NCBI GenBank assembly: GCA_029259545.1
Contig: JAPHEE010000003.1
Coordinates: 10,049 to 74,048 of the forward strand
Origin: Candidatus Alkanophaga volatiphilum
GTDB lineage: Archaea; Halobacteriota; Syntropharchaeia; Alkanophagales; B39-G2
DNA length: 64,000 nt
Direction: 5' to 3'
Shown: piece by piece, positions 3,828 through 61,434 of the stretch
Numbering within the stretch: position 1 is the stretch's first letter
Layout of the letters: each line of letters starts with the position of its first letter
Made by a program: the position numbers and the translations under genes
The notes under the pieces: generated by a model
Database searches by the model: none
Told to the model about the DNA's origin: nothing
The model's input: the letters and a program-made list of their open reading frames with translations, nothing else

Positions 3828-4361
3828 ATGCAGGTGAGCAAGCGTGTTGGCAGCTCCACTTTAGAGCTTATGGAAGGAGACATCACCGAACTCGACACCG
3901 ACGCTATCGTCAACGCTGCAAATTCTTCACTGAAGATGGGTAGCGGCGTCGCTGGAGCGATCCTCAGGAAGGGCGGCTATGAAATCCAAGAGGAATGTGA
4001 CCGCATTGGATATTGTCCGGTCGGCGGTGCCGTGATAACGACCGGTGGAAAGCTCAAAGCGAAGTATGTAATACATGCCGTCGGTCCCAGATGGGGCGAG
4101 GGCGACGAGGACGAAAAGCTGAAAAATGCGACGCTGAATTCCTTAAAGCTCGCAGATGAGCGAGGGCTAAAAAGCATCGCTTTGCCAGCGATAAGCACAG
4201 GCATATTTGGTTTCCCGATGGACAGGGCGGCGAGGATCATGCTATCTACAGCCATCGAGTATCTAAAGGGCGAAACACAGCTCGAACGGGTAGTGTTCTG
4301 CCTTTATGGTAAGGAAGCTTTTGAAACGTTCAGGAAGACGCTCGAGGAGTTGCTACCTTAG
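3828..4361 (+). CDS. macro-domain protein (O-acetyl-ADP-ribose deacetylase-like)
   Basis: IVNAANSSLKMGSGVAGAI ... VIHAVGPRW macro-domain motifs. Confidence 0.75.
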   Translation: MQVSKRVGSSTLELMEGDITELDTDAIVNAANSSLKMGSGVAGAILRKGGYEIQEECDRIGYCPVGGAVITTGGKLKAKYVIHAVGPRWGEGDEDEKLKNATLNSLKLADERGLKSIALPAISTGIFGFPMDRAARIMLSTAIEYLKGETQLERVVFCLYGKEAFETFRKTLEELLP

Positions 4362-4370
4362 CTCAAAGCG

Positions 4371-4409
4371 TTTAAGAATATTGTTGCTGCTAATCCCATT
4401 CAAAGGTGC
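4371..4409 (+). promoter_or_regulatory. TATA-like promoter motif TTTAAGAATATTGTTGCTGCTAAT...TTCAAAGGTGC (copy 1 of 2)
   Basis: 24-nt exact match with 34248-34271 plus shared downstream TTCAAAGGTGC; AT-rich TATA-like core followed by a GC-rich structured segment. Confidence 0.35.
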
Positions 4410-4476
4410 CGTAGCCGCACTGAGGGATGCCCCTCAGTGAGGGAGAAGTCACTGCCTCCCTAAATACCACTACGGC
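4408..4476 (+). ncRNA. candidate small structured RNA (unknown class)
   Basis: perfect 7-bp closing helix GCCGTAG/CTACGGC enclosing two hairpins (CTGAGGG-ATGC-CCCTCAG and AGGGAG-loop-CTCCCT); no ORF; about 25 nt downstream of the TATA-like motif. Confidence 0.25.
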
Positions 4477-7539: not shown

Positions 7540-10038
7540 TTAACTGACCTCCTCTATGCGCACCCGTATTGCTGCGGCGGGGTCGTTCGTCGGTCCTATG
7601 TATCTCTCCTCCCCACCGACGAGTTCGCGCACGTGTAGCGATACTATGTGTGTGCCGCTGGACATCGGCACCCATGTGACGCTTATCCTCACGTCTTTCT
7701 CCTCTCCGTTTAAAATTTCATCCCTCCGTGCTAAGAGCATGCCGTCAACACGAAGTTTCACCCTGACCGTAACTGAGTGGTTCTTGTTGTTCTTAATGCC
7801 CAGCGCATATGCGTCAACATCGACTGGCTGTCCTATTGTCGGACTTTCGGGAGTGACGCTGAAGATATGCCTACCGCTCCACGTGACGTTACCGCTCATT
7901 TCGGAGCCAACGCCTTCGCCAACCACTATTATCTCAGTCGTTGAATCCGTCTTACCGAAATTGTCTTCAACCTCAAGCCTCACGGTGTACTCTCCAGGCT
8001 GGCTGTATGCGTGGCTTATCATAACCACGTTGCCCTCCACGTCCCAGCCGCCGTCCCCATCTAAGTCCCATCTGTAGACGGCTATGTAGCTGTTGGGGTC
8101 GTAGCTCGCAGAAGCGTCGAGCGTGACGGTCTCGTTCGTCTTCACTTCGGTCTTGTCGGCTTCGAGCACCGCCACCGGCGGCAAGTTCCTCAAGACTCTT
8201 ATCCCATGTGTTGCGCTCGTTTTCGCCCCGTCGTCGTCGGTGACGGTCAGCCTTACTGTGTAGTTACCGGCGCTGGCGTAAGCGTGGGACACGACGGCGC
8301 CGCTCGCGGTCGTTCCGTCGCCGAAGTCCCACTCGTAGGCGACAATGACGCCGTCGATGTCTGAAGCATCTGCTTCGAACTGCACCTCGACGCCCTCACT
8401 TGTGACCTCTGGTCCCGCTATGCTCACGCTCGGCGCCCTGTTATTCACCTTCACAGTAACGCTCGTGCTGTTCTTCGCCCCGTGGTTGTCGGTGACGGTC
8501 AGGGTCGCCGTGTAGGTGCCGTCGTCGGCGTAGGCGTGGGACACGACGGCGCCGCTTGCGGTCGTTCCGTCGCCGAAGTCCCACTCGTAGCTGATTATCG
8601 AGCCGTCGGGGTCGTAGCTCGCAGAAGCGTCGAACGTTATGTCCTCATAGGTGTAAGTTTCGTTCGGACGTGCGGTCGCAACGGCGACGGGCGGCGCCGT
8701 GACAGCGACGCTGAGCGAGGGCAGCGGGACTTCGTGCTCCTCACCGAAGACATCTTCGTAAGCGACTATGGAGTTCTCGGTATTCAGAACGACATCGCCC
8801 GAAACCAATGGCTTGACGTCGAAGGACACGCTCCAAGTCTCATTGACGGAAAGCTCGCCGACGCTCCATATTAGCTTGTTGCCCACGATCTGCGGCGTCT
8901 GCGTCGCATTGCCGGCGTACGTGACGGCATCTGCGAGCTTGAACGTGACGACGACGTCCTTGGCGGTGATGTTGGAAAGCTCGACCGCCAGCTCCTTGTA
9001 GATGTTAAGGAGATCATCACTGGTTGCCGGGAAGAAGGATTCGCCGCCCGTCGTTTCTGCGATCTGCGTCAGCTCGTCGTAGTTGACGCCGCCCCAGCCG
9101 ATGACGTAGATCGGGATCCCGTCAGCCGCCGCCCTTTGTGCTTGATCGAGCGGGCTGACGCCCATGTTCCACCAGCCGTCCGTCAGCAGGATTATGGCTT
9201 TGACGGCGTCATTCCGCCCGTAAGCTTCGAGGTGGTCGAGCGCCCTGTCGAGACCCTCCCCCATGGGCGTGCCGCCGCTCGCAGAAAGCCCGTTGATCGC
9301 ACTCTTGACGGCGTCCTTGTCCGTAGTCAGGCTCTGAACAACTTTACAATACGCAGAATAGCTCCAGCCATCGGAATGGAACTTCACGAGCGCCGCCCTG
9401 TCGTTGCTCTTTAAGAGATCGACGAACTCGCTAGCAGCATTCTTTGCCCCTTCTATTCTCACAGGCTGTAGCTCCACGCAGAACGTCCTATCGGGCTGCG
9501 TGTAGCCTGAGCGGTAGTAGTAGAGCCTTGCGTAGACCTCATAAGTCCCTGGTTGGAGGTTGCTCCAGCGAACAACCGAGTACGCCCCCTTGGTACTCGT
9601 CTTCGCCCCTGTATCTTTGTTCTTCAGGTAAGCGTAGTAGTAGTCGTAGTAATAGAAGTAGACGTCAGCGCCGTAGCCTCTACCCGGTAAGGTCTGAAGC
9701 ATGATCTCCACATCCGCAGGCGAGGAGATGGTGAACTCCCCGATCTTCTGGTAGCTCGTGGTGAGCGTCACGTCACGCACGTCGGTTATGATCGCCCCGT
9801 AGCGGTTCATCGAGCCTGAGCAGTCCATGACGAGGGCGACGTCGAGCGGGAACGATATCTCAGACGTCCCACTTCCGGTGAGCACGATCGTCACCCTCGT
9901 GGTCTCGCCGAGCTGGATGACGTCCGGGCTGACGCTCGCGTCCACACTCACGTGCACGCCGCCTTGCGCCGCCGTCGCCACGGTTGCCGCCACGAGCATT
10001 GCGAATGCAAAGATTGCTGACAGTTTTGCGCCTCTCAT
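7540..10038 (-). CDS. large secreted von Willebrand factor A domain protein with three PKD domains and a Tyr-rich segment
   Basis: signal peptide MRGAKLSAIFAFAMLVAATVATA; vWA MIDAS-like DVALVMDCSGSM and LLTDGWWN motifs; three repeats of YEWDFGDGTTASG / YRWDLDGDGGWD (PKD). Confidence 0.8.
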   Translation of the reverse strand: MRGAKLSAIFAFAMLVAATVATAAQGGVHVSVDASVSPDVIQLGETTRVTIVLTGSGTSEISFPLDVALVMDCSGSMNRYGAIITDVRDVTLTTSYQKIGEFTISSPADVEIMLQTLPGRGYGADVYFYYYDYYYAYLKNKDTGAKTSTKGAYSVVRWSNLQPGTYEVYARLYYYRSGYTQPDRTFCVELQPVRIEGAKNAASEFVDLLKSNDRAALVKFHSDGWSYSAYCKVVQSLTTDKDAVKSAINGLSASGGTPMGEGLDRALDHLEAYGRNDAVKAIILLTDGWWNMGVSPLDQAQRAAADGIPIYVIGWGGVNYDELTQIAETTGGESFFPATSDDLLNIYKELAVELSNITAKDVVVTFKLADAVTYAGNATQTPQIVGNKLIWSVGELSVNETWSVSFDVKPLVSGDVVLNTENSIVAYEDVFGEEHEVPLPSLSVAVTAPPVAVATARPNETYTYEDITFDASASYDPDGSIISYEWDFGDGTTASGAVVSHAYADDGTYTATLTVTDNHGAKNSTSVTVKVNNRAPSVSIAGPEVTSEGVEVQFEADASDIDGVIVAYEWDFGDGTTASGAVVSHAYASAGNYTVRLTVTDDDGAKTSATHGIRVLRNLPPVAVLEADKTEVKTNETVTLDASASYDPNSYIAVYRWDLDGDGGWDVEGNVVMISHAYSQPGEYTVRLEVEDNFGKTDSTTEIIVVGEGVGSEMSGNVTWSGRHIFSVTPESPTIGQPVDVDAYALGIKNNKNHSVTVRVKLRVDGMLLARRDEILNGEEKDVRISVTWVPMSSGTHIVSLHVRELVGGEERYIGPTNDPAAAIRVRIEEVS

Positions 10039-16553: not shown

Positions 16554-17896
16554 TCAAAGAAGGAATTTCAGAAGCACACTTGGCGACAGTGCTTTTCTTT
16601 TCGGCAGAACGTTTGTCACGACGCCGCAGAGTAACTCTGCCAGTCTTTCGTCCATGGACGCATTTTTTATTATCCTATCCAGCAATAAGGGGCGTCTTAC
16701 GAGCCTTCTGAGGAGTGACCTCCGCCCTCGCTTAGCAAGGGGCTTCCCGGAGAGGTTGGGGGTGGTTCAGACGATCGGGCGGGGTCACCGCAGCCCTGCC
16801 CGCAGGATATACCCACGGCTCGCTCCGACTCGCATCACTTCGGAAAATTAACTGCCTCCACCCCAATCATCCCCGCCCGCAGGACGAACCTTCTTAGCGA
16901 CTGAAGGTAAAGAGTGCCTGAAGTCTGCGGCGAATTGTTTTTTCCATGCCGTGTCGTATTCTTTCAGCGTCCTTAGACTCGTGTCCTCAAGCTTCAAAGC
17001 CTTCGCAGCGACATCAGTAGCAAGCTTCCCGCTTTCGAGCGCTGCCCTCGCCGGTAAGGGGGTTCACAAAGGACGCGGCGTCCCCTATGAAGAGAATTCC
17101 GTTCGTGGCGGCTGCCGCCCGTCGGGACGAGCCAGCCTCTCGCCTTGCCTGCTTTGCGTCCTTTAGCCTTGTGGCACCGGTAATAAACCTTTTAAAGTAC
17201 GCGTTCAGGTTTATCTTCCTGTGCGCCGGCATCACGCCCACACCCACATTCGCCATGTCGTCACCAATCGGGAATATCCAGCCGTAACCTGGCAGCAACT
17301 TTTGCTCATAATGAAACTCAACGAAATCAAAACTTTCAACGCCGGAAAAGTATGCACGGACCGCGACGCCTACGTTGGCTCGCCTTTTTCTCTCCTCTTT
17401 TAACAGGTACCTCGTGAGTGCTGAAAATGCGCCGTCAGCGGCGATCACTACTTCTGAATTTATTTCAGTGATGTTACCATCATGTTTGCCCCTGACGCCC
17501 ACGACGCTTTTATTTTTCAACAGAGGCTCTTTAACCAGAACTTCGAAGAATTCGGCGCCCGCATCAACGGCATGACTTCGTAAAATCTCGTCGAATTCCA
17601 TTCGTGGAGCTACATAGCCGTAGGGTCTGTCTTAGGACTTTTTGCGCTCATGCGGTAGCCGCTCGGCGAGAATATGGTTATGCCATCGGACTTTTTGAAA
17701 CCGCTTCGCTCAATGGTTCCAAGGAGCCGCATTTCCTCTAGCGTCTTCAGCGAGCGTGGAGAAATGGCGTCGCCGCACACTTTTTCCCGCGGAAAACTTC
17801 TTCTATCAACTAGTAGAACGTCATAGCCGGGTCTTGCGAGGAAGTGTGCGCAGGCGCCCGCGGTCCAGCGCCGACGATGGTGACGTCCTTTCGCAT
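16554..17896 (-). pseudogene. geranylgeranyl reductase family (FAD-dependent) gene with at least 3 frameshifts, interrupted by a MITE-like insertion
   Basis: MRKDVTIVGAGP then shift; ...PYGYVAPRMEFDEILRSHAVDAGAEF; ...FIGDAASFVNPLTGEG then shift to IALESGKLATD...; tail LVRRPLLLDRIIKN downstream of the inserted repeat; begins directly after the hmgA stop. Confidence 0.7.
16715..16912 (+). mobile_element. MITE-like repeat copy A (about 198 nt, ACCTCC...GGAGGT-type terminal inverted repeats) inserted in the GGR 3' region
   Basis: homologous to 42542-42780 (GTGACCTCC...CTTAGCGACTGRAGGTAAA ends, shared internal blocks GGGCTTCC, GGTTGGGG, CGCAGGATRTACCCACGG, AAATTAACTRCCTCCA, ATCATCCCCGCCC). Confidence 0.55.
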
Positions 17897-20884: not shown

Positions 20885-20990
20885 CCTGCGGTGCTTCGTG
20901 CCTCGCCCTTTGGGTTACTTAACAGGTGGATATTTGGTCCGCTTACGCTCGCCCAAATTTGCTCCGCAAACTTTACATATCCCTAACATT
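20885..20990 (+). repeat. direct repeat copy 1 (island boundary / duplicated upstream region)
   Basis: CAGGTGGATATTTGGTCCGCTTACGCTCGCCCAAATTTGCTCCGCAAACTTTACATATCCC, about 85% identical to 23374-23434, with weaker similarity extending 40 nt upstream. Confidence 0.55.
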
Positions 20991-23334: not shown

Positions 23335-23441
23335 TGAACTCTCCGCTTTGCTTCGGTGCCAACACTCGGACGACAGGTGGATATGTGGCTTCGCTACGCT
23401 CACCCAAATTTGCTCTGCAAACTTTACATATCCCCAGAATG
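23335..23441 (+). repeat. direct repeat copy 2
   Basis: matches 20885-20990 (see copy 1). Confidence 0.55.
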
Positions 23442-34247: not shown

Positions 34248-34288
34248 TTTAAGAATATTGTTGCTGCTAATTCCCGCCTTTCAAAGGT
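34248..34288 (+). promoter_or_regulatory. TATA-like promoter motif (copy 2 of 2)
   Basis: 24-nt exact match with 4371-4394 plus TTCAAAGGTGC; a second canonical TATA (ATTATTTATAAAGG) at 34309-34322. Confidence 0.35.
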
Positions 34289-34490
34289 GCAGCAGGGGAG
34301 GCGGCGGGGATTATTTATAAAGGGCGTGTATTATGCGTTGCTCGCGGTGCGGGTTGGGTCGGGCGCCGAAGTGAAGCCTCGACACCGCAACCTCTGCCCG
34401 TGAGGCTGAAAGAGCCGCCGGGCAAGGCGAGGATGAACTGGAAACCCCCTCAGAATGCCCCTTCAGCGAGGGGAGGCGGTCACAAATCAC
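34289..34490 (+). ncRNA. candidate structured non-coding RNA (unknown class)
   Basis: about 200 nt GC-rich non-coding sequence with helix-forming segments (GCGGTG...CACCGC; CCCTCAGAATGCCCCTTCAGCGAGGGGAGG resembles the copy-1 hairpins). Confidence 0.2.
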
Positions 34491-36896: not shown

Positions 36897-37019
36897 CCAA
36901 GGTACTTTGGGCTAACATTTACAAATTTCGGCGGGAGAAAGCTTATGTTTAACATGAGATGAATCGCCGTTGGGTTTATACATTCGTTTTGCAATTTTGC
37001 TATTAGCGAGGCTGCGGGT

Positions 37020-37640
37020 ATAGCCTGCGGGCAGGCTGCGGTGAGCCGCTCGCCGTCGTGAGGCTCCCGGCTTCAGCCGTGGAGTAGCTCACAAAGTGCG
37101 GCACGAAGCTGCACTCCCCTCCGGCTTGGCACACAGCCCCCGCCCACACCATATAAGCATGGGCCCGTTTAAACGCCGTAGCTCCGAGGACGCCAATGAG
37201 GGGAGCAGCTGGGGATGGAGGCAGTTTGGAATCTACCTTGATCTCACTGCTTGTTGGGACTTTCGGGCGGGAAACCCTTTAGGTTTGCGTTGGTCTGGGC
37301 TCGGGGACGGACGCCTTTTCACATCACTGGCAACCGACTTCAGCACCCCCCGGCGCTCCGGTCTAAGGAGGCACTTTATCTTCCCGTTGCTTGCAAGACC
37401 CTGGGGATACAGGGGAGGCGGGTGGGGAAGTTTAAATACTTCAGTCTACTGAAGATTGGAATGTTTCTGATGACGCAAGGGGGAAGAGATGGGCAAATAG
37501 CCCATGCCTTAAGAGGCATGGGATGGGGGAGCTGTGAACCCCCCCGAATCCAGATGAAGCCTTAGCCGTAAAGGCAGGTGGAACGGGAGAAGCCCCGTCC
37601 GTAGGGCGGGGTAGTTCACCCTTTCTACCTTTCTATAGCT
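37020..37640 (+). repeat. 620-nt GC-rich non-coding composite repeat block (X-motif plus MITE-like segment)
   Basis: no ORF of 60 aa or more on either strand; 37115-37150 CTCCCCTCCGGCTTGGCACACAGCCCCCGCCC matches 61239-61270; 37385-37440 resembles the MITE left arm. Confidence 0.45.
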
Positions 37641-39427: not shown

Positions 39428-39464
39428 TAATATTTTCACTATTTACAAAATGTCGCTAAGAAAG

Positions 39465-39484
39465 CCCCTCACTTCAGTGAGGGG
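39465..39484 (+). terminator. GC hairpin CCCCTCACTTCAGTGAGGGG after pan
   Basis: perfect 8-bp stem immediately 3' of pan. Confidence 0.35.
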
Positions 39485-39508
39485 ATGAATTAGGGGTGGT
39501 AGGTGGTT

Positions 39509-39531
39509 TTTATACTCTGAAATTAGTATAA
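39509..39531 (+). repeat. IS200/IS605-type left-end hairpin TTATACT-ctgaaatt-AGTATAA
   Basis: perfect 7-bp inverted repeat a few nt upstream of the tnpB start. Confidence 0.45.
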
Positions 39532-39535
39532 AGAA

Positions 39536-40754
39536 TGATGGAAATAACAAAGACCATCAGGTGTAAACTCATCGGACTAACGAAGCGAAAGTTAGACTTA
39601 ATCGAGAATACGACAACTTCCAACACTACTTGAAGACAGGAGAAGATAGAGGCGTTTATTCTGCAACGAAACAGCAAGGGAAAAGAGCCTATCGAAAAAT
39701 TGACCTTAAAAAAGAATATCCTCTTGTCATAAGAAAAGACCTGATGGATATTTGGAAGACTGATAACAAGCTCGCCAAATACTGGGCTCGCATTCCCGTT
39801 CACGGTGTTAGAGGCGGTATTAAGGTTGCTTTAGCTCATCAACCCTTCAACTTCGAGGAGTGGGGAATTTGTGGCTCTAAACTCGTTAGAAAGAATGGTG
39901 AGTTCTACCTCCATGTGACGGTCAAAAAGAATGTTGAACTCAGGAAGGAATACTCATCCATCATAGCAATCGATATGGGAGCGAGATGGGTGGGGGTGTC
40001 GGTGGCGCCCCACCGCAGTAAGCCAAAGTTCTACGGCAAGAGGGTGAGAGAGGTTAGAGGAAAGTATTTCCGGTTGAGGAGGAAGCTTGGAAGGGAGAAG
40101 AAACTACTGGCGATAAAGAGGACAGGACATAAGGAGAAGAGAGTTGTGAATAATGAGCTACACAAGATAGCAAAGGAAATTGTTGATGAAGCTGAGAAGC
40201 ACAACGCAATAATTGCAGTCGGTAATTTGAATGGGGTTAGAAAGAACAACAGGGGAAGAAAAGTGAACAGGAAAGTTAATTCGATGCCTTTCTACAAACT
40301 GAAGGAATATATCAAGTATAAAGCCCTTGAGAGAGGAATTGCAGTGATAGAAGTTCCAGAATTTAACACATCAAAGCAATGTTCTCGTTGCGGCTCGATG
40401 CGAGCTGAAAGACCTTCTCAAGGATTATTCATCTGCAAGGATTGTGGCTACCAGATTAATGCCGATGTGAACGGAGCTAAAAATATATTGAAGCGAGCCC
40501 AGGGCTATATGCTCTGGGCAGGGGCTTCTGTGACCCAGCCCGAAGGGGGGAGCAGGTACATCCTGCACACTCCCCAACCTCCCAAGGCTTCCGGTGGAAG
40601 CCCTGACTTTAGTCGGGAGGAGGTCACGAGGCTTAACTACCAGTCTATCGTAAATGCGACGAATCCTTTGCCATTTGAATTTAAATCCAGCAAGAACGCC
40701 GTTGTAAACAAAAAAGTTTTTATACGTATAATCCTCGCTTTCTCTTGTGAGTAA
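39536..40754 (+). pseudogene. tnpB: IS605/IS1341-family TnpB (RNA-guided nuclease family) with an N-terminal frameshift
   Basis: MMEITKTIRCKLIGLTKRKLDLIEN in one frame, then EYDNFQHYLKTGEDRGVY... in the ORF-track frame (39630-40754); RuvC-like and CSRCGS...CKDCGY zinc-finger motifs; no tnpA adjacent. Confidence 0.7.
40515..40627 (-). mobile_element. MITE-like repeat copy E (internally deleted, reverse orientation) inside the tnpB 3' end
   Basis: CTGCACACTCCCCAACCTCCCAAGGCTTCCGGTGGAAGCCCT...GGGAGGAGGTCAC is the reverse complement of the copy-B left arm. Confidence 0.45.
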
Positions 40755-42342: not shown

Positions 42343-43310
42343 GTGAGCCGTAAGGTTGGAATATATATCCGGGTTAGCACGCAGGAGCAAGCTGAAAGCG
42401 GTATTAGTATCGAAATACAACGCTCCTTACTCTACAAGTTCTGTGAGCTGCACGGCTGGGAAGTTCACAAAGAATATGTGGACGCCGCCAAGAGTGCGGC
42501 GACCATAGAGCGAAAGGCGTTGCAGGAGCTTCTTGAAGACTGTGACCTCCTCCCCTGCTCACGCAAGAGGGCTTCCACCGGAAGCCTTGGGAGGTTGGGG
42601 AGTGTGCAGCACAAAGCTACGCTCCCCGCCGGGCGGGTCACGACGCCCCTGACCGCAGGATGTACCCACGGACTCGCCCAGACCTACATTAAACTTTCGG
42701 AGTATAAAAAATTAACTACCTCCAACCTCCCCAATTCATCCCCGCCCTCAGGACGAGCCCTCTTAGCGACTGGAGGTAAAATGGAGAAGTAGATACAGTC
42801 GTTGTGTTTAAGCTGGATAGACTTTCGAGGTCGCTTCGTGACCTGATCCTATTAATGGACGAGCTTAAAAGGTACGGCGTCGACTTCGTGAGCGTCACCG
42901 AACGCATAGACACGACAACCGCCGCCGGGAAACTCATGTTTCATATAATCGGGGCGTTTGCGGAATTCGAGCGGGAGATGACGATCGAGAGGACGAAGCT
43001 GGCGATGGACAAGAAGGTTAAGGAGGGCTCGTTTGTCGGGCGGCTCCCGCTTGGCTATCGCTACGACGAGAGCCGCCGCATAGTCCTTTCGGAGGACGCC
43101 GAAACCGTCCGCTGCGTGTTCTTTGACTTCCTCGAGACGCAGAACGTCAGTGAGGTCGCCCGGAAACATAACATGTCGAGGATGCAAGTTTACAGAATAC
43201 TTAGAAACCATTTTACGCTGGCATTGTCCACTGGCGGGACGTGGAGTGGCGGGGCAATCACCCTAAGATCATCAGCAAGAGGACGTTCGAAAAAGTCCAA
43301 AGGATTTTAA
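42343..43310 (+). pseudogene. small serine recombinase (resolvase/invertase family) disrupted by a MITE-like insertion
   Basis: N-part VGIYIRVSTQEQ (catalytic Ser)...LLEDCD, then 239-nt insert, then DTVVVFKLDRLSRSLRDL...GAFAEFEREMTIERT and C-terminal HTH; the two halves lie in different frames. Confidence 0.7.
42542..42780 (+). mobile_element. MITE-like repeat copy B (239 nt)
   Basis: the insert splitting the recombinase; ends GTGACCTCC... and ...CTTAGCGACTGGAGGTAAA; homologous to copy A. Confidence 0.6.
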
Positions 43311-59821: not shown

Positions 59822-61186
59822 GTGGTGCAGGTGAGGAAGTTTGATATCTTGGTCGTTGGAGGTGGTCCAGGAGGCTTTGTCTCTGCGCTGCTTACGAAGC
59901 GCCTAAGCCCCGAAAAGTCGGTGGCTCTGGTCAGAAGGGACGAAAAAGCCATCATCCCCTGCGGAGTTCCCTACGTCTTCGGAACGCTGAAAGACGCCGA
60001 CAAGGACATCCTACCCGATGATCCTCTGAAAAACGCTGGCGTTGAGGTGGTGATCGGCGAGGTATCCTCCATAGACCTCAAGGAGAAGAAGGTTGTGTTA
60101 TCCGGCGGCGAGGAGCTGGGCTACGAAAAGCTCGTTTTGGCGACCGGCTCGTACCCCGTCAGAATTCCCGTCAAGGGCACCGACCTGGGCAACGTGTTCT
60201 ACGTGGTCAAGAGCTACGACGCCACGGCTCAGCTGAAAGATGCTATCGAAAAAGCCAAGAACGTGGTCATCCTCGGAGGGGGCTTCATAGGCGTCGAAGT
60301 GGCTGAAGACGTTGCGAGGAACTACGAGGACAAGAAGGTAACGATCGTAGAGATGCTTCCTCACTGCTTGCAGAGAAACTTCGACCCGGAGTTCTGCGAG
60401 CTGGCTGAGGAGAAGCTGAAGTCTCTCGGCGTCGAGATCAAGACCAATACTCTCGTCCAAGAGCTGGTGGGGGAGGGAGGAGTCGTAAAGTCGGCTAAGC
60501 TCTCAACGGGCGAAGAGATTCCAGCAGATCTGGTGATAATAGCGGGAGGGACTAGGGCGAACGCGGAGCTCGCAGAGAAAGCTGGGCTGAGGATGGGCGC
60601 ATTCGGAGCAATAGTCGTAGACGACTTTTGCCGGACAAGCGATGCCAACGTGTGGGCTGTTGGGGACTGCGCCGAGAAGAGAGACCCCTTCACCGGAAAG
60701 CCCACGCCCGTGATGTTGGCTTCGATAGCGGCTAGGGAGGGGCGGGTTGCGGCGCTGAACATCTTGGGAATAGGCTCCAAGGGGCTCAGGGGAGGAACCG
60801 TTCCCGTGTTCTCCACCATAATCGACGACTTGGCGATGGGGGCTGTGGGCATGACCGAGTCTGCTGCCAAAGCCGAGGGCTTCGACGTCATAGTCGGAAA
60901 CGCCACAGCCCCGGACAAACACCCAGGTGCGCTTCCTGGGATGAGGGAGCTTAGGGTTAAGCTGATCTTCTCCAAAGTCGATGGGAGGCTGCTGGGGGCG
61001 GAGGCTGCCGGGGGCGCTAGCGTAGGCGAACTGGTAAACGTATTGGGCGTAGCTGCTCAGCTCGGCGCAACGGTGTACGACCTTGTCACCATGGAGTTTG
61101 GTACGCACCCGAGGCTAACCGCGTCGCCGATAGCATACCCCATCCTCGCTGCTGCGCAGGATGCGCTGGCTAAGCTGCTAAAGTGA
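59822..61186 (+). CDS. FAD-dependent pyridine nucleotide-disulfide oxidoreductase (CoA-disulfide reductase / NADH oxidase family)
   Basis: ILVVGGGPGG, single redox Cys IIPCGVPY, second Rossmann VVILGGGFIGVE. Confidence 0.8.
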   Translation: MVQVRKFDILVVGGGPGGFVSALLTKRLSPEKSVALVRRDEKAIIPCGVPYVFGTLKDADKDILPDDPLKNAGVEVVIGEVSSIDLKEKKVVLSGGEELGYEKLVLATGSYPVRIPVKGTDLGNVFYVVKSYDATAQLKDAIEKAKNVVILGGGFIGVEVAEDVARNYEDKKVTIVEMLPHCLQRNFDPEFCELAEEKLKSLGVEIKTNTLVQELVGEGGVVKSAKLSTGEEIPADLVIIAGGTRANAELAEKAGLRMGAFGAIVVDDFCRTSDANVWAVGDCAEKRDPFTGKPTPVMLASIAAREGRVAALNILGIGSKGLRGGTVPVFSTIIDDLAMGAVGMTESAAKAEGFDVIVGNATAPDKHPGALPGMRELRVKLIFSKVDGRLLGAEAAGGASVGELVNVLGVAAQLGATVYDLVTMEFGTHPRLTASPIAYPILAAAQDALAKLLK

Positions 61187-61238
61187 CCCCCTCACGGGCG
61201 GGTTTCCGCCGACGGGGTGCGGCTCGGACGAGCCGCTC

Positions 61239-61434
61239 CCCGGCTTGGCACGCAGCCCCCGCCCGCCAATTTCTTTACGGAGCCCTCTCGGCGAAGGTGA
61301 CCTCCCGCTCGGCAAGGAGCTTCCGCCGGGGTTGGGGAGGTTGTGGGGGGGTGTGCGGCACGGGCTGCGCGCCCCGCCGAGCGGGTCACCCTCAGGACGG
61401 AGCATCCTACGACCGAGGGTAAAACCCTCTTTCC
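61239..61434 (+). mobile_element. composite repeat: X-motif (61239-61270) plus short MITE-like copy D (61297-61434)
   Basis: CTCCCCGGCTTGGCACGCAGCCCCCGCCC matches 37115-37150; GTGACCTCCCGCTCGGCAAGGAGCTTCC...GGTTGGGGAGG...GGGTCACC...GAGGGTAAAA parallels copies A and B. Confidence 0.45.

Follow-up and report, generated by a model that had tools for sequence, protein, structure and literature searches.

Gene-less miniatures of a TnpB-carrying IS200/IS605-type insertion sequence keep a predicted guide-RNA scaffold in a heat-loving alkane-oxidising archaeon

The window analysed here is a stretch of 64,000 nucleotides from one contig of Candidatus Alkanophaga volatiphilum. It contains a geranylgeranyl reductase reading frame and a serine recombinase gene that are each split by a copy of a short repeat, an insertion sequence with a tnpB gene, and a number of smaller elements. 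The features are as follows (PATE, palindrome-associated transposable element).

39447-40627, plus strand: full-length TnpB-only (IS1341-type) insertion sequence of 1,181 nt, parent type of the family; TTTAC at 39442-39446, then the left end; right end ...GGAGGTCAC
39630-40754, plus strand: tnpB reading frame as listed; the gene actually begins at the ATG near 39528
40490-40627, plus strand: copy E, putative omega-RNA-like scaffold with stems S1-S5; overlaps the tnpB 3' end and stops at the right end; presumed guide in the flank from 40628
42542-42775, minus strand: copy B, PATE of 234 nt with left end, TATA-like box and intact scaffold; TTTAC at 42776-42780 (minus strand)
16715-16906, minus strand: copy A, decayed PATE of 192 nt lacking stem S3 and the TATA-like box; TTTAC at 16907-16911
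61297-61418, minus strand: copy D, decayed PATE of 122 nt, about 30 nt of left end joined into the S2 loop; TTTAC at 61419-61423
61183-61296, minus strand: variant PATE G, tandem neighbour of D on its 3' side with no gap between them; read directly, with a weak covariance-model score of 9.7 bits; repeat D9; right end GGGGGTCAC
36923-37171: composite relic in which two related elements lie in opposite orientation, 36923-37092 (plus, preceded by TTTAC) and 37041-37171 (minus)
37380-37619, plus strand: PATE of a third family, 240 nt; preceded by TTTAT; right end ...GGTAGTTCAC; covariance model 25.2 bits
34253-34483, plus strand: PATE with a second left-end type, GTTGCTGCTAAT...; preceded by TTTAAG; right end ...GGCGGTCAC; covariance model 16.2 bits; repeat D8
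4377-4452, plus strand: ends-only mini element of about 76 nt with the left-end type of 34253-34483; finishes in GAAGTCAC; repeat D8

It is evident that the four copies named in a preliminary description of this DNA (A, B, D and E) are real and clearly homologous. A BLASTN search of copy B against the window recovers A (E = 4e-26), E (E = 5e-24) and, as a 40-nt partial match, D (E = 1e-4), and the covariance model scores E at 130.9, B at 113.6, A at 61.8 and D at 19.0 bits. At least five further elements or relics of related families are present beyond these four; the two halves of the composite relic score 21.4 and 25.5 bits, and the relic is kept, with small indels, in L001 and L004. Copies A (192 nt), B (234 nt) and D (122 nt) have no room for a protein-coding gene. 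Every copy had been thought to lie inside a gene or pseudogene, which is true only of A and B; E forms the tnpB 3' end in a full-length insertion sequence, and D is found beyond the end of a gene and adjoins another element. Copy D, which is also devoid of S1 and of a promoter, is placed between the presumed target motif of G and the left end of G, and the oxidoreductase gene at 59822-61186 takes its stop codon from the right end of G, GGGGGTCAC.

Copy A splits the geranylgeranyl reductase frame (minus strand) into ...FAADFRHSL upstream of the element and LLRRLVRRPLLLDRIIKN... downstream of it. As had been noticed before, the current stop of the gene falls within copy A and the displaced C-terminus is still readable beyond the element. 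The 195-aa fragment matches PF22578 (GGR_cat), and the gene has at least two more frameshifts and is therefore a pseudogene. No empty site for copy A was found among the related contigs recovered (L074-L078), each of which has the insertion or breaks there, so the limits of copy A follow from the reading frame and from analogy with copy B. Copy B splits the serine recombinase gene at 42343-43310, which encodes Resolvase and Recombinase domains. A self-splicing intron or in-frame insert was considered for both copies and rejected: the length of A is divisible by 3 but stop codons occur within it, the reading frame is shifted by B, and no match to a ribozyme family turned up.

The left and right ends of A, B and D match those of the tnpB element at 39447-40627 and of full-length copies in L027 and L046. 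The protein of this element scores 173.4 bits against NCBIfam NF040570 guided_TnpB (cutoff 100) and 82.7 bits against PF07282 (cutoff 26.3; E = 2e-23), and TnpB and Cas12f are its best relatives in the PDB. Compared with L001 and L004, in which tnpB is intact, the gene has lost 4 nt and with them its frame, and the window copy is thus a pseudogene; it is the sole tnpB of the window. A six-frame scan for HUH/Y motifs, a crude method that gives weak evidence, found no Y1 HUH TnpA in either the window or the fetched loci. The autonomous parent sought in the preliminary description is present in the window, as an element with matching ends that carries TnpB alone, in frameshifted form, and no transposase.

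The insertion of copy B can be read against an empty allele. In the closely related sister strain L001 the recombinase gene is uninterrupted exactly at the site of B, where the empty sequence is GAAGACTGTAAAAACGG and the filled sequence is GAAGACTGT, then GACCTCC...GGAGG, then TAAAATGG. The insertion is clean and lies just 3' of TTTAC, with zero target duplication and an ambiguity of only 2 nt (AC). The earlier idea of a non-autonomous repeat with recent mobility is borne out by this comparison, and no target-site duplication accompanies it. Three changes lie near the target motif in the flank of copy B. Two of them are coding changes, one synonymous and one conservative, and a reading of the cluster as repair scars was dropped in favor of ordinary allelic differences; the third, a 1-nt loss in an A-run, falls outside this account.

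The same boundaries recur in other copies. TTAC is found in 14 of the 14 distinct left-end flanks and TTTAC in most of them, and the sequence further upstream varies. The family right end is GGAGGTCAC, with GTCAC or TCAC as the right-end boundary motif (TEM); the boundary is independently confirmed by L004, to which homology stops at GGTCAC, and the flanks beyond GGTCAC differ from copy to copy. The left end common to the insertion sequence and the PATEs is GTCGCTAAGAAxG followed by a hairpin, GATGAATTAGGGG and a TTTATA box, and the parent shares the motif GTCGCTAAG and the hairpin with copies A and B. Ends-only mini elements of 48-76 nt, which have no RNA, still possess both ends. There are no terminal inverted repeats, and imperfect palindromes are located near both ends. 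The left hairpin lies 18-20 nt, and the right hairpin (S5) 10 nt, from the cleavage site at the respective end, with AAAG or AAGG at the left hairpin foot and GAAG or GATG at the right. This spacing and these foot tetranucleotides agree with the layout of IS608. Since the ends, the target motif and the subterminal hairpins are all of the IS200/IS605 type, the elements belong to the PATE class.

The family had originally been described as MITE-like, and a classical MITE would be a deletion derivative of a DDE-transposase element with the inverted repeats GTGACCTCC / GGAGGTAAA and target-site duplications. A size of 190-240 nt, the dispersed copies and a 6-nt ACCTCC/GGAGGT inverted match at both junctions of A and B agree with such an origin. 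The first of these ends is genuine, GTGACCTCC being the reverse complement of the right end GGAGGTCAC, whereas GGAGGTAAA consists of flank and target motif: its GTAAA is the flanking TTTAC and lies outside the element. The sole inverted match, the supposed ACCTCC repeat, is 6 nt long, and one of its arms is made up of flanking TAC and the first element bases CTC, thereby taking in the flanking target TTAC. Nor is the repeat a defining feature; the parent insertion sequence begins with AAAAT instead of CTCC, and with starts of AAAAT, GAAAG, CTTTA or CTTCA in the parent and other copies the repeat is not conserved. The protein of the parent is TnpB and not a DDE enzyme, and the empty/filled pair without duplication refutes the MITE reading, which we consider almost certainly wrong.

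A second alternative is mobilisation of the IS607 type or by another serine recombinase, with the AC at both junctions as the crossover dinucleotide. The AC ambiguity is indeed seen on either side of both A and B, the serine recombinase gene at 42343-43310 lies close by, and IS607 elements likewise carry TnpB and are devoid of inverted repeats or duplications (PMC6188088). However, the left end of all full-length copies runs straight into tnpB with no serine-recombinase tnpA upstream, and the nearby recombinase lies outside the element and is the victim of insertion B. The conserved 4-5-nt target TT(T)AC, the related GTCAC at the right end and hairpins set 18-20 and 10 nt from the ends suit single-strand transposition of the IS608 type instead, and a serine recombinase is very unlikely to have moved these elements.

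We therefore interpret A, B and D as PATEs, that is, internal-deletion, non-autonomous derivatives of a TnpB-only IS200/IS605-family insertion sequence with a full-length copy at 39447-40627, and estimate the probability of this reading at about 85%. It is supported directly by homology, the ends, the target motif, the lack of duplication, presence/absence polymorphism, an RNA structure with covariation and membership of the parent protein in TnpB. The repeat family is thus a gene-less miniature of a TnpB-carrying IS200/IS605-type transposon that still has a structured guide RNA, as predicted from the features of its conserved core.

Read in the sense of tnpB, this core consists of five stems, with the right end as its exact 3' limit. 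Among 31 copies from many archaeal phyla, the 43 pairs of the model are paired in 92.4% of cells, compared with 36-48% when partners are slid; compensatory changes occur at 19 pairs, and the observed value was reached by 0 of 500 shuffles. A putative pseudoknot between a GUGACC loop and the GGUCAC 3' end is invariant across copies, and ACCUCC could instead pair with GGAGGU. Both strands fold well (z-scores of -2.4 to -4.5) and thermodynamic folding does not tell them apart. The strand was instead assigned from the Rfam HgcC matches and from the counts of 83 G-U pairs in the tnpB sense versus 38 A-C pairs, 19 of the latter coming from a single conserved position. The RNA is GC-rich even where the host genome has 34% GC. 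It occupies the position of an omega RNA, on the tnpB strand and overlapping the tnpB 3' end, with the scaffold running to the right end and variable flank thereafter. A core with such anatomy is a predicted TnpB guide (omega) RNA scaffold of about 135 nt.

The preliminary description had opposed a structured RNA to a mobile repeat, and this proves to be a false dichotomy, as the family is a mobile repeat with a covarying structured-RNA core. The strong covariation, the sub-threshold HgcC matches and the presence in many archaeal phyla could also be explained by ordinary, duplicated HgcC-like genes for cellular noncoding RNAs, whose likeness would reflect RNA function rather than mobility. This explanation is highly improbable given precise presence/absence polymorphism inside a gene between near-identical strains, the disruption of genes by copies, the physical location of the RNA inside a tnpB insertion sequence whose ends and target motif are defined, and the retention of both ends by the 48-76-nt minis that have no RNA.

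At gathering thresholds Rfam finds nothing in the window, and the relation to HgcC (RF00062) appears only in E-value mode. The matches are 37.5 bits for E (E = 5e-5), 30.6 for B, 46.0 for L009, 38.9 for L046 and 38.4 for L056, so that all lie between 30.6 and 46 bits, under the gathering threshold of 50, with E-values of 9e-8 to 4e-3. The scaffold is thus a significant, sub-threshold relative of HgcC and not a curated member. The Rfam model aligns to S2, S4, S5 and the 3' end GGAGGAGGUCA on the tnpB-sense strand; the central S3, in contrast, is absent from the alignment. HgcC is a high-GC RNA of AT-rich hyperthermophilic archaea, recognised since 2002 without an assigned function, and Rfam lists its function as unknown. 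No description of HgcC as a TnpB guide RNA was found in the literature searched, where the only link noted is a tetraloop motif common to HgcC and IS1341 right ends, reported in 2015 (PMC4615843). The orphan family HgcC seems to represent the guide RNAs that belong to this TnpB clade, an assignment that would give it a function.

Elements of this kind are already well known; the present ones are recently mobile and reside in a heat-loving alkane-oxidising archaeon. The PATEs of Haloquadratum walsbyi and other haloarchaea are likewise gene-less and devoid of inverted repeats or target duplication, with palindromic sequence close to the termini and, at the 5' end, a target oligonucleotide of 4-5 nt (PMC3119063). 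They too arose by core deletion from IS605/IS1341-type (TnpB) elements, include ends-only versions of about 50 bp, and show strain-specific insertions and side-by-side pile-up (PMC3119063). The present elements differ in their hosts, here an alkane-oxidising thermophile together with other archaea of hydrothermal settings, and in belonging to an unrelated sequence family. Furthermore, unlike haloarchaeal PATEs as described, most copies here keep the whole predicted guide-RNA scaffold and the TATA-like box; guide-RNA retention in PATEs was not appreciable in 2011. As in IS608, ISDra2 and ISGst elements, the left end directly follows the target motif (TTAC in IS608, TTTAT in ISGst2, TTTAC here), and the right-end motif TTCAC of ISGst2 compares with GTCAC here (PMC10055086). 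In IS200/IS605 elements the guide RNA similarly extends from the tnpB 3' end to the right end and on into the flank, and the PATE-like minis of G. stearothermophilus also have the ends of their parent (PMC10055086). In contrast to IS608, ISDra2 and ISGst, no tnpA with these ends was present in the data searched, the TnpB and RNA sequences are distant, and the system is known here from sequence alone. The sotRNAs of Halobacterium, sense overlapping transcripts, are placed and oriented alike at the 3' ends of IS1341-type tnpB genes and were detected experimentally (PMC4615843), whereas the RNA described here is predicted from sequence and covariation. PATEs and the TAM/TEM logic thus have precedent in PMC3119063 and PMC10055086, and an intergenic RNA derived from a PATE is expressed in Halobacterium (PMC4615843).

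The PATEs insert directly 3' of TTTAC without duplication and, by analogy with the IS200/IS605 family, would be moved as single-stranded DNA by a Y1 TnpA supplied elsewhere in the genome. The core RNA may be a tnpB-sense transcript up to the right end, with the adjacent host sequence as guide. In intact PATEs such as B, the AT-rich TATA-like box brought by the left end lies directly upstream of the scaffold, and elements that keep both would therefore act as protein-less guide-RNA cassettes. TnpB provided in trans and loaded with a PATE guide might cut the empty allele, consisting of TTTAC plus flank, which would then be re-copied by homing. Because the tnpB of the window is frameshifted, supply of both proteins in trans is assumed; we infer TnpA dependence, transcription, TnpB binding and homing.

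Different deletion junctions (those of B/L009, L056, L068, the L019 type, L025/L057 and L022) all keep the TATA-like box together with the scaffold, S1 onwards, and these are independent origins; for the part from S2 to the right end, the search pattern itself accounts to some extent for its retention among the copies collected. As independent deletions have repeatedly kept the tnpB TATA-like box and the full scaffold, it is conceivable, though we offer this tentatively, that PATEs are not just debris but are selected as guide-only satellites or parasites of TnpB, and that HgcC RNAs are TnpB guide RNAs across archaeal phyla in hydrothermal habitats. In such a satellite, each insertion could create a new guide and exploit TnpB from elsewhere for homing into empty alleles. 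The scaffolds of A and D are damaged, and hence not every copy can be a functional guide-RNA gene. Retention of the box and scaffold by independent deletion derivatives might alternatively reflect host-level selection, the guide RNAs having been co-opted by the host or TnpB for RNA-guided repression or defence, and Halobacterium growth is affected by a PATE-derived RNA and by a tnpB 3' RNA (PMC4615843). We think co-option very improbable, since the copies either destroy genes or lie in pseudogenes, decay is under way in A and D, and the flanking 'guides' are mere insertion-site sequence.

Many GC-rich repeats interrupt genes and fragment assemblies in Candidatus Alkanophaga and neighbouring hydrothermal archaea. 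Their boundaries and target motif are now set, and annotation gains from treating them as IS200/IS605-derived PATEs and not as inverted-repeat MITEs. Exploitation of TnpB in trans by protein-less elements is directly testable with the published metatranscriptomes of the cultures in BioProject PRJNA862876, and genome-editing groups could take an interest in a thermophilic TnpB that has about 360 aa and for which the TTTAC motif and the scaffold are defined. The pattern search of genomes returned 67 loci, of which about 29 bacterial ones (Amycolatopsis and others) were discarded as chance or coding matches. A single match in a Thermodesulfobacterium bin has an Alkanophaga-like GC content and is probably misbinned.

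Four stretches of the window, named in the preliminary description as copies of one repeat, proved homologous when copy B was used as a BLASTN query against the window. The hits were copy A (E=4e-26), copy E, which lies in reverse orientation (E=5e-24), copy D, as a partial match of 40 nt only (E=1e-4), and a previously unlisted fragment near 37000. A repeat search of the window also paired 16795-16819 with 37011-37035, and 37121-37145 with 61240-61264. The copies and the insertion sequence (IS) containing one of them are as follows.

16715-16906, minus strand: copy A
42542-42775, minus strand: copy B
61297-61418, minus strand: copy D
40490-40627, plus strand: copy E, the 3′ end of the IS
39447-40627, plus strand: TnpB-only IS

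Copy A was said to lie within a geranylgeranyl reductase gene and to supply its stop codon, and the reading frame, on the minus strand, bears this out: it runs ...FAADFRHSL and enters the element, which contains the stop, and beyond the element it continues in frame (LLRRLVRRPLLLDRIIKN...). The remaining fragment of 195 aa matches PF22578 (GGR_cat). In addition to copy A, this gene carries at least two frameshifts and is therefore a pseudogene. Copy B cuts a serine recombinase (PF00239) into pieces of 149 aa and 168 aa.

The ORF whose 3′ end holds copy E (39630-40754, plus strand) encodes a TnpB. It scores 173 bits against NCBIfam guided_TnpB (cutoff 100) and matches PF07282 (E=2e-23), and the nearest solved structures to its product are TnpB and Cas12f. 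The left end of the IS, directly 3′ of a PAN ATPase gene, reads TTTAC^AAAATGTCGCTAAGAAAG (carets mark element boundaries), a hairpin, GATGAATTAGGGG, TTTTTATAC and then ATG. The same architecture is found at the supposed right ends of copies A and B when read in minus orientation: TTTAC^CT(T/C)CAGTCGCTAAGA(A/G)GG, a hairpin and GATGA(A)TTGGGG. The tnpB gene, the matching left end and copy E thus make up a complete TnpB-only IS of 1,181 nt (39447-40627), the parent element with matching ends for which a search had been proposed. Since the left end is common to the IS and copies A and B, we consider copies A, B and D to be deletion derivatives of such elements on the opposite strand. Relative to L001 and L004, two near-identical sister contigs in which the gene is intact, the tnpB of the window has a 4-nt deletion (aact; region 39528-39640) and goes out of frame after about 25 codons. 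From window position 40628 and L004 position 12443 onward, following the common PAN gene and tnpB element, the sequences diverge completely, with an NFACT gene in L004 in place of the ArsB-type permease of the window; the boundary of the element is here the breakpoint of a rearrangement.

The sister-sample contigs were recovered through lookup of the neighboring PAN protein, and the same genes as in the window are present in run SRR22214801 of the Candidatus Alkanophaga enrichment study (PMC10322722). The recombinase in L001 carries no insertion and is 298 aa long. Its empty site reads ...CTTGAAGACTGTAAAAACGGAGAAATAG..., compared with ...CTTGAAGACTGT^GACCTCC...GACTGGAGG^TAAAATGGAGAAGTAG... at the filled site, or TTTAC^CTCCAGTCGC...GGAGGTCAC^AGTCTTC on the element's own strand. 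Copy B is thus inserted directly 3′ of TTTAC with no target duplication, and the sole ambiguity is two bases, AC, that could belong to either side of the junctions. Transposition by a serine recombinase, as in IS607-like elements, would fit this AC overlap but agrees with neither the element organization nor the conserved target. TTAC, usually as TTTAC, is present in 14 of 14 distinct left-end flanks from this window and other genomes, and the sequences beyond it are unrelated between copies. The right end is independently confirmed by L004, where homology ends at GGTCAC and the downstream flank is different. The left hairpin begins 18-20 nt inside the element and the right hairpin finishes 10 nt ahead of its end. 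The tetranucleotides adjoining the two hairpins at their feet, either AAAG or AAGG for the left hairpin and either GAAG or GATG for the right one, presumably relate to TTAC and TCAC in the manner of the IS608 guide tetranucleotides, which is a lead rather than a test.

The presence and absence of copy B between strains of the same enrichment series indicates recent mobility, as had been proposed. Near its target motif (window 42776-42800, L001 14364-14390), a run of five A is one base shorter in the filled allele, so that precise excision would leave the recombinase frame unrestored; two substitutions, one synonymous and one conservative, are also found there.

The preliminary description correctly saw a mobile repeat, whereas its assignment to MITEs was wrong. 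The ACCTCC terminal inverted repeat on which it relied is partly flank, given insertion just 3′ of TTTAC, and is missing from the parent IS, which begins AAAAT. From these sequence features, the class that fits copies A, B and D is the palindrome-associated transposable element (PATE). PATEs were defined in Haloquadratum as elements without inverted repeats or duplications, with near-terminal palindromes and a 4-5-nt target, derived from IS605/IS1341 elements via core deletion and including ends-only forms of about 50 bp (PMC3119063). PATE-like miniature elements, and the logic of target motifs at the left end (TAM) and boundary motifs at the right end (TEM), have been described in Geobacillus (PMC10055086). 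A 48-nt element at another locus (L009 2437-2484) is made up solely of the left-end hairpin region joined to the terminal 14 nt of the right end, with TTTAC still preceding it, and resembles the 52-bp terminal-only PATEs known from Haloquadratum.

When representative genomes were scanned once for a pattern derived from the invariant blocks, 67 loci were obtained, about 38 of which are genuine and archaeal; the others, in Amycolatopsis and elsewhere, were dropped as chance coding matches to the pattern. Thirteen genuine loci are in a Candidatus Alkanophaga liquidiphilum MAG, eight are in one Archaeoglobaceae MAG, and others are in Thermococci, Methanosarcinales, Undinarchaeota, Aenigmatarchaeota, Hodarchaeota, Thermoproteota, Thermoplasmata and Hydrothermarchaeota. 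A full tnpB adjoins the match in seven loci, and many others are PATEs. Two public contigs need comment. In L014, binned to the bacterial partner in a Candidatus Thermodesulfobacterium syntrophicum MAG, the 3′ end of a tnpB gene carries the same RNA; with its Alkanophaga-like GC (0.51), this contig is probably misbinned rather than a cross-domain transfer. In the Thermococci contig L017 (1-66, tnpB-sense orientation), an Illumina Nextera adapter (…AGATGTGTATAAGAGACAG) is fused to the tnpB start, evidently contamination in a public MAG.

Five stems (S1-S5) are supported by the tnpB-sense alignment of 31 sequences. Among 1,213 cells, 92.4% are paired, compared with 36-48% when partners are slid, compensatory changes are present in 19 of 43 pairs, and 0 of 500 shuffles reached the observed values. 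G-U outnumbers A-C (83 versus 38) in the tnpB sense, with half of the A-C from one conserved position. GUGACC of the S2 loop and GGUCAC at the 3′ end, both invariant, could pair with each other, and an alternative ACCUCC/GGAGGU pairing is also possible. The RNA begins in the last tnpB codons, its 3′ terminus coincides exactly with the right end, and the sequence that follows varies per copy. This is the layout of a TnpB omega RNA.

Scored with a covariance model of these 31 sequences, E, B, A and D reach 130.9, 113.6, 61.8 and 19.0 bits, respectively. Copy B has kept every stem and, about 30 nt upstream of S1, the AT-rich left-end box TTTTTATAC. Copy A is without this box and S3, and copy D joins about 30 nt of the left end into the S2 loop. 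PATE lineages differ in their deletion junctions (B/L009, L056, L068, L019-type, L025/L057 and L022), and all of these retain both the TATA-like box and the scaffold starting at S1. For the stretch between S2 and the right end, retention is in part imposed by the search pattern; this does not apply to S1 or the box.

Rfam gave no match at curated thresholds. In E-value mode, HgcC (RF00062) matches on the tnpB strand, with 37.5 bits for copy E, 30.6 for copy B and 38-46 for other copies (E 9e-8 to 4e-3), every score being under the threshold of 50. The match sites are as follows.

40520-40640, plus strand: window
42529-42651, minus strand: window
3911-4034: L009
3786-3912: L046
2799-2921: L056

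The function of HgcC has been called unknown (PMC5732400), and its only tnpB link in the literature searched is a common tetraloop motif reported in 2015 (PMC4615843). These matches suggest that HgcC RNAs are TnpB guide RNAs.

Homology to the tnpB IS, exact ends, a target motif, lack of duplication, insertion polymorphism and RNA structure are what is observed here. By analogy with the IS200/IS605 family (PMC10055086), Y1 TnpA given in trans would drive single-strand 'peel and paste' transposition, the scaffold and its flank would be transcribed, and TnpB would be guided to cut the empty TTTAC-plus-flank allele, letting recombination restore the element. No TnpA was detected in the window or the fetched loci by a crude motif search. 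The elements are a further case of a known kind, in which only the HgcC link and the reading as a 'guide-only cassette' are mildly novel.

The covariance model and direct reading revealed a variant element, G, in tandem with copy D. Copy D lies exactly between the presumed target motif and the left end of G, as predicted by repeated use of the same TTTAC. The right end of G (GTCAC, GTGAC on the plus strand) gives the TGA stop of a pyridine-nucleotide disulphide oxidoreductase gene (59822-61186, plus strand). Besides G, related PATE families are represented in the window by a minimum of four more elements or relics, which differ in left-end type and have TTTAC, TTTAT and TTTAAG among their target motifs.

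61183-61296, minus strand: variant element G
36923-37171: composite relic, from the covariance model and direct reading
37380-37619: 240-nt element preceded by TTTAT
about 34253-34483: second left-end type
4377-4452: ends-only miniature element of about 76 nt

In A. liquidiphilum, the second left-end type, with target TTTAG, is joined to a family-1 right end.

Two other repeats were observed in the window. Direct repeats of 62 nt (20922-20983 and 23373-23434, 85% identical) surround a 2.4-kb segment with a GC of 0.37-0.43, compared with about 0.54 elsewhere, and may represent the termini of a small integrated element. Direct repeats of 90-147 nt also lie inside an 832-aa ORF (7540-10038, minus strand), at 8063-8665, where the sequence is GC-rich, and this ORF probably encodes a repeat-domain protein.
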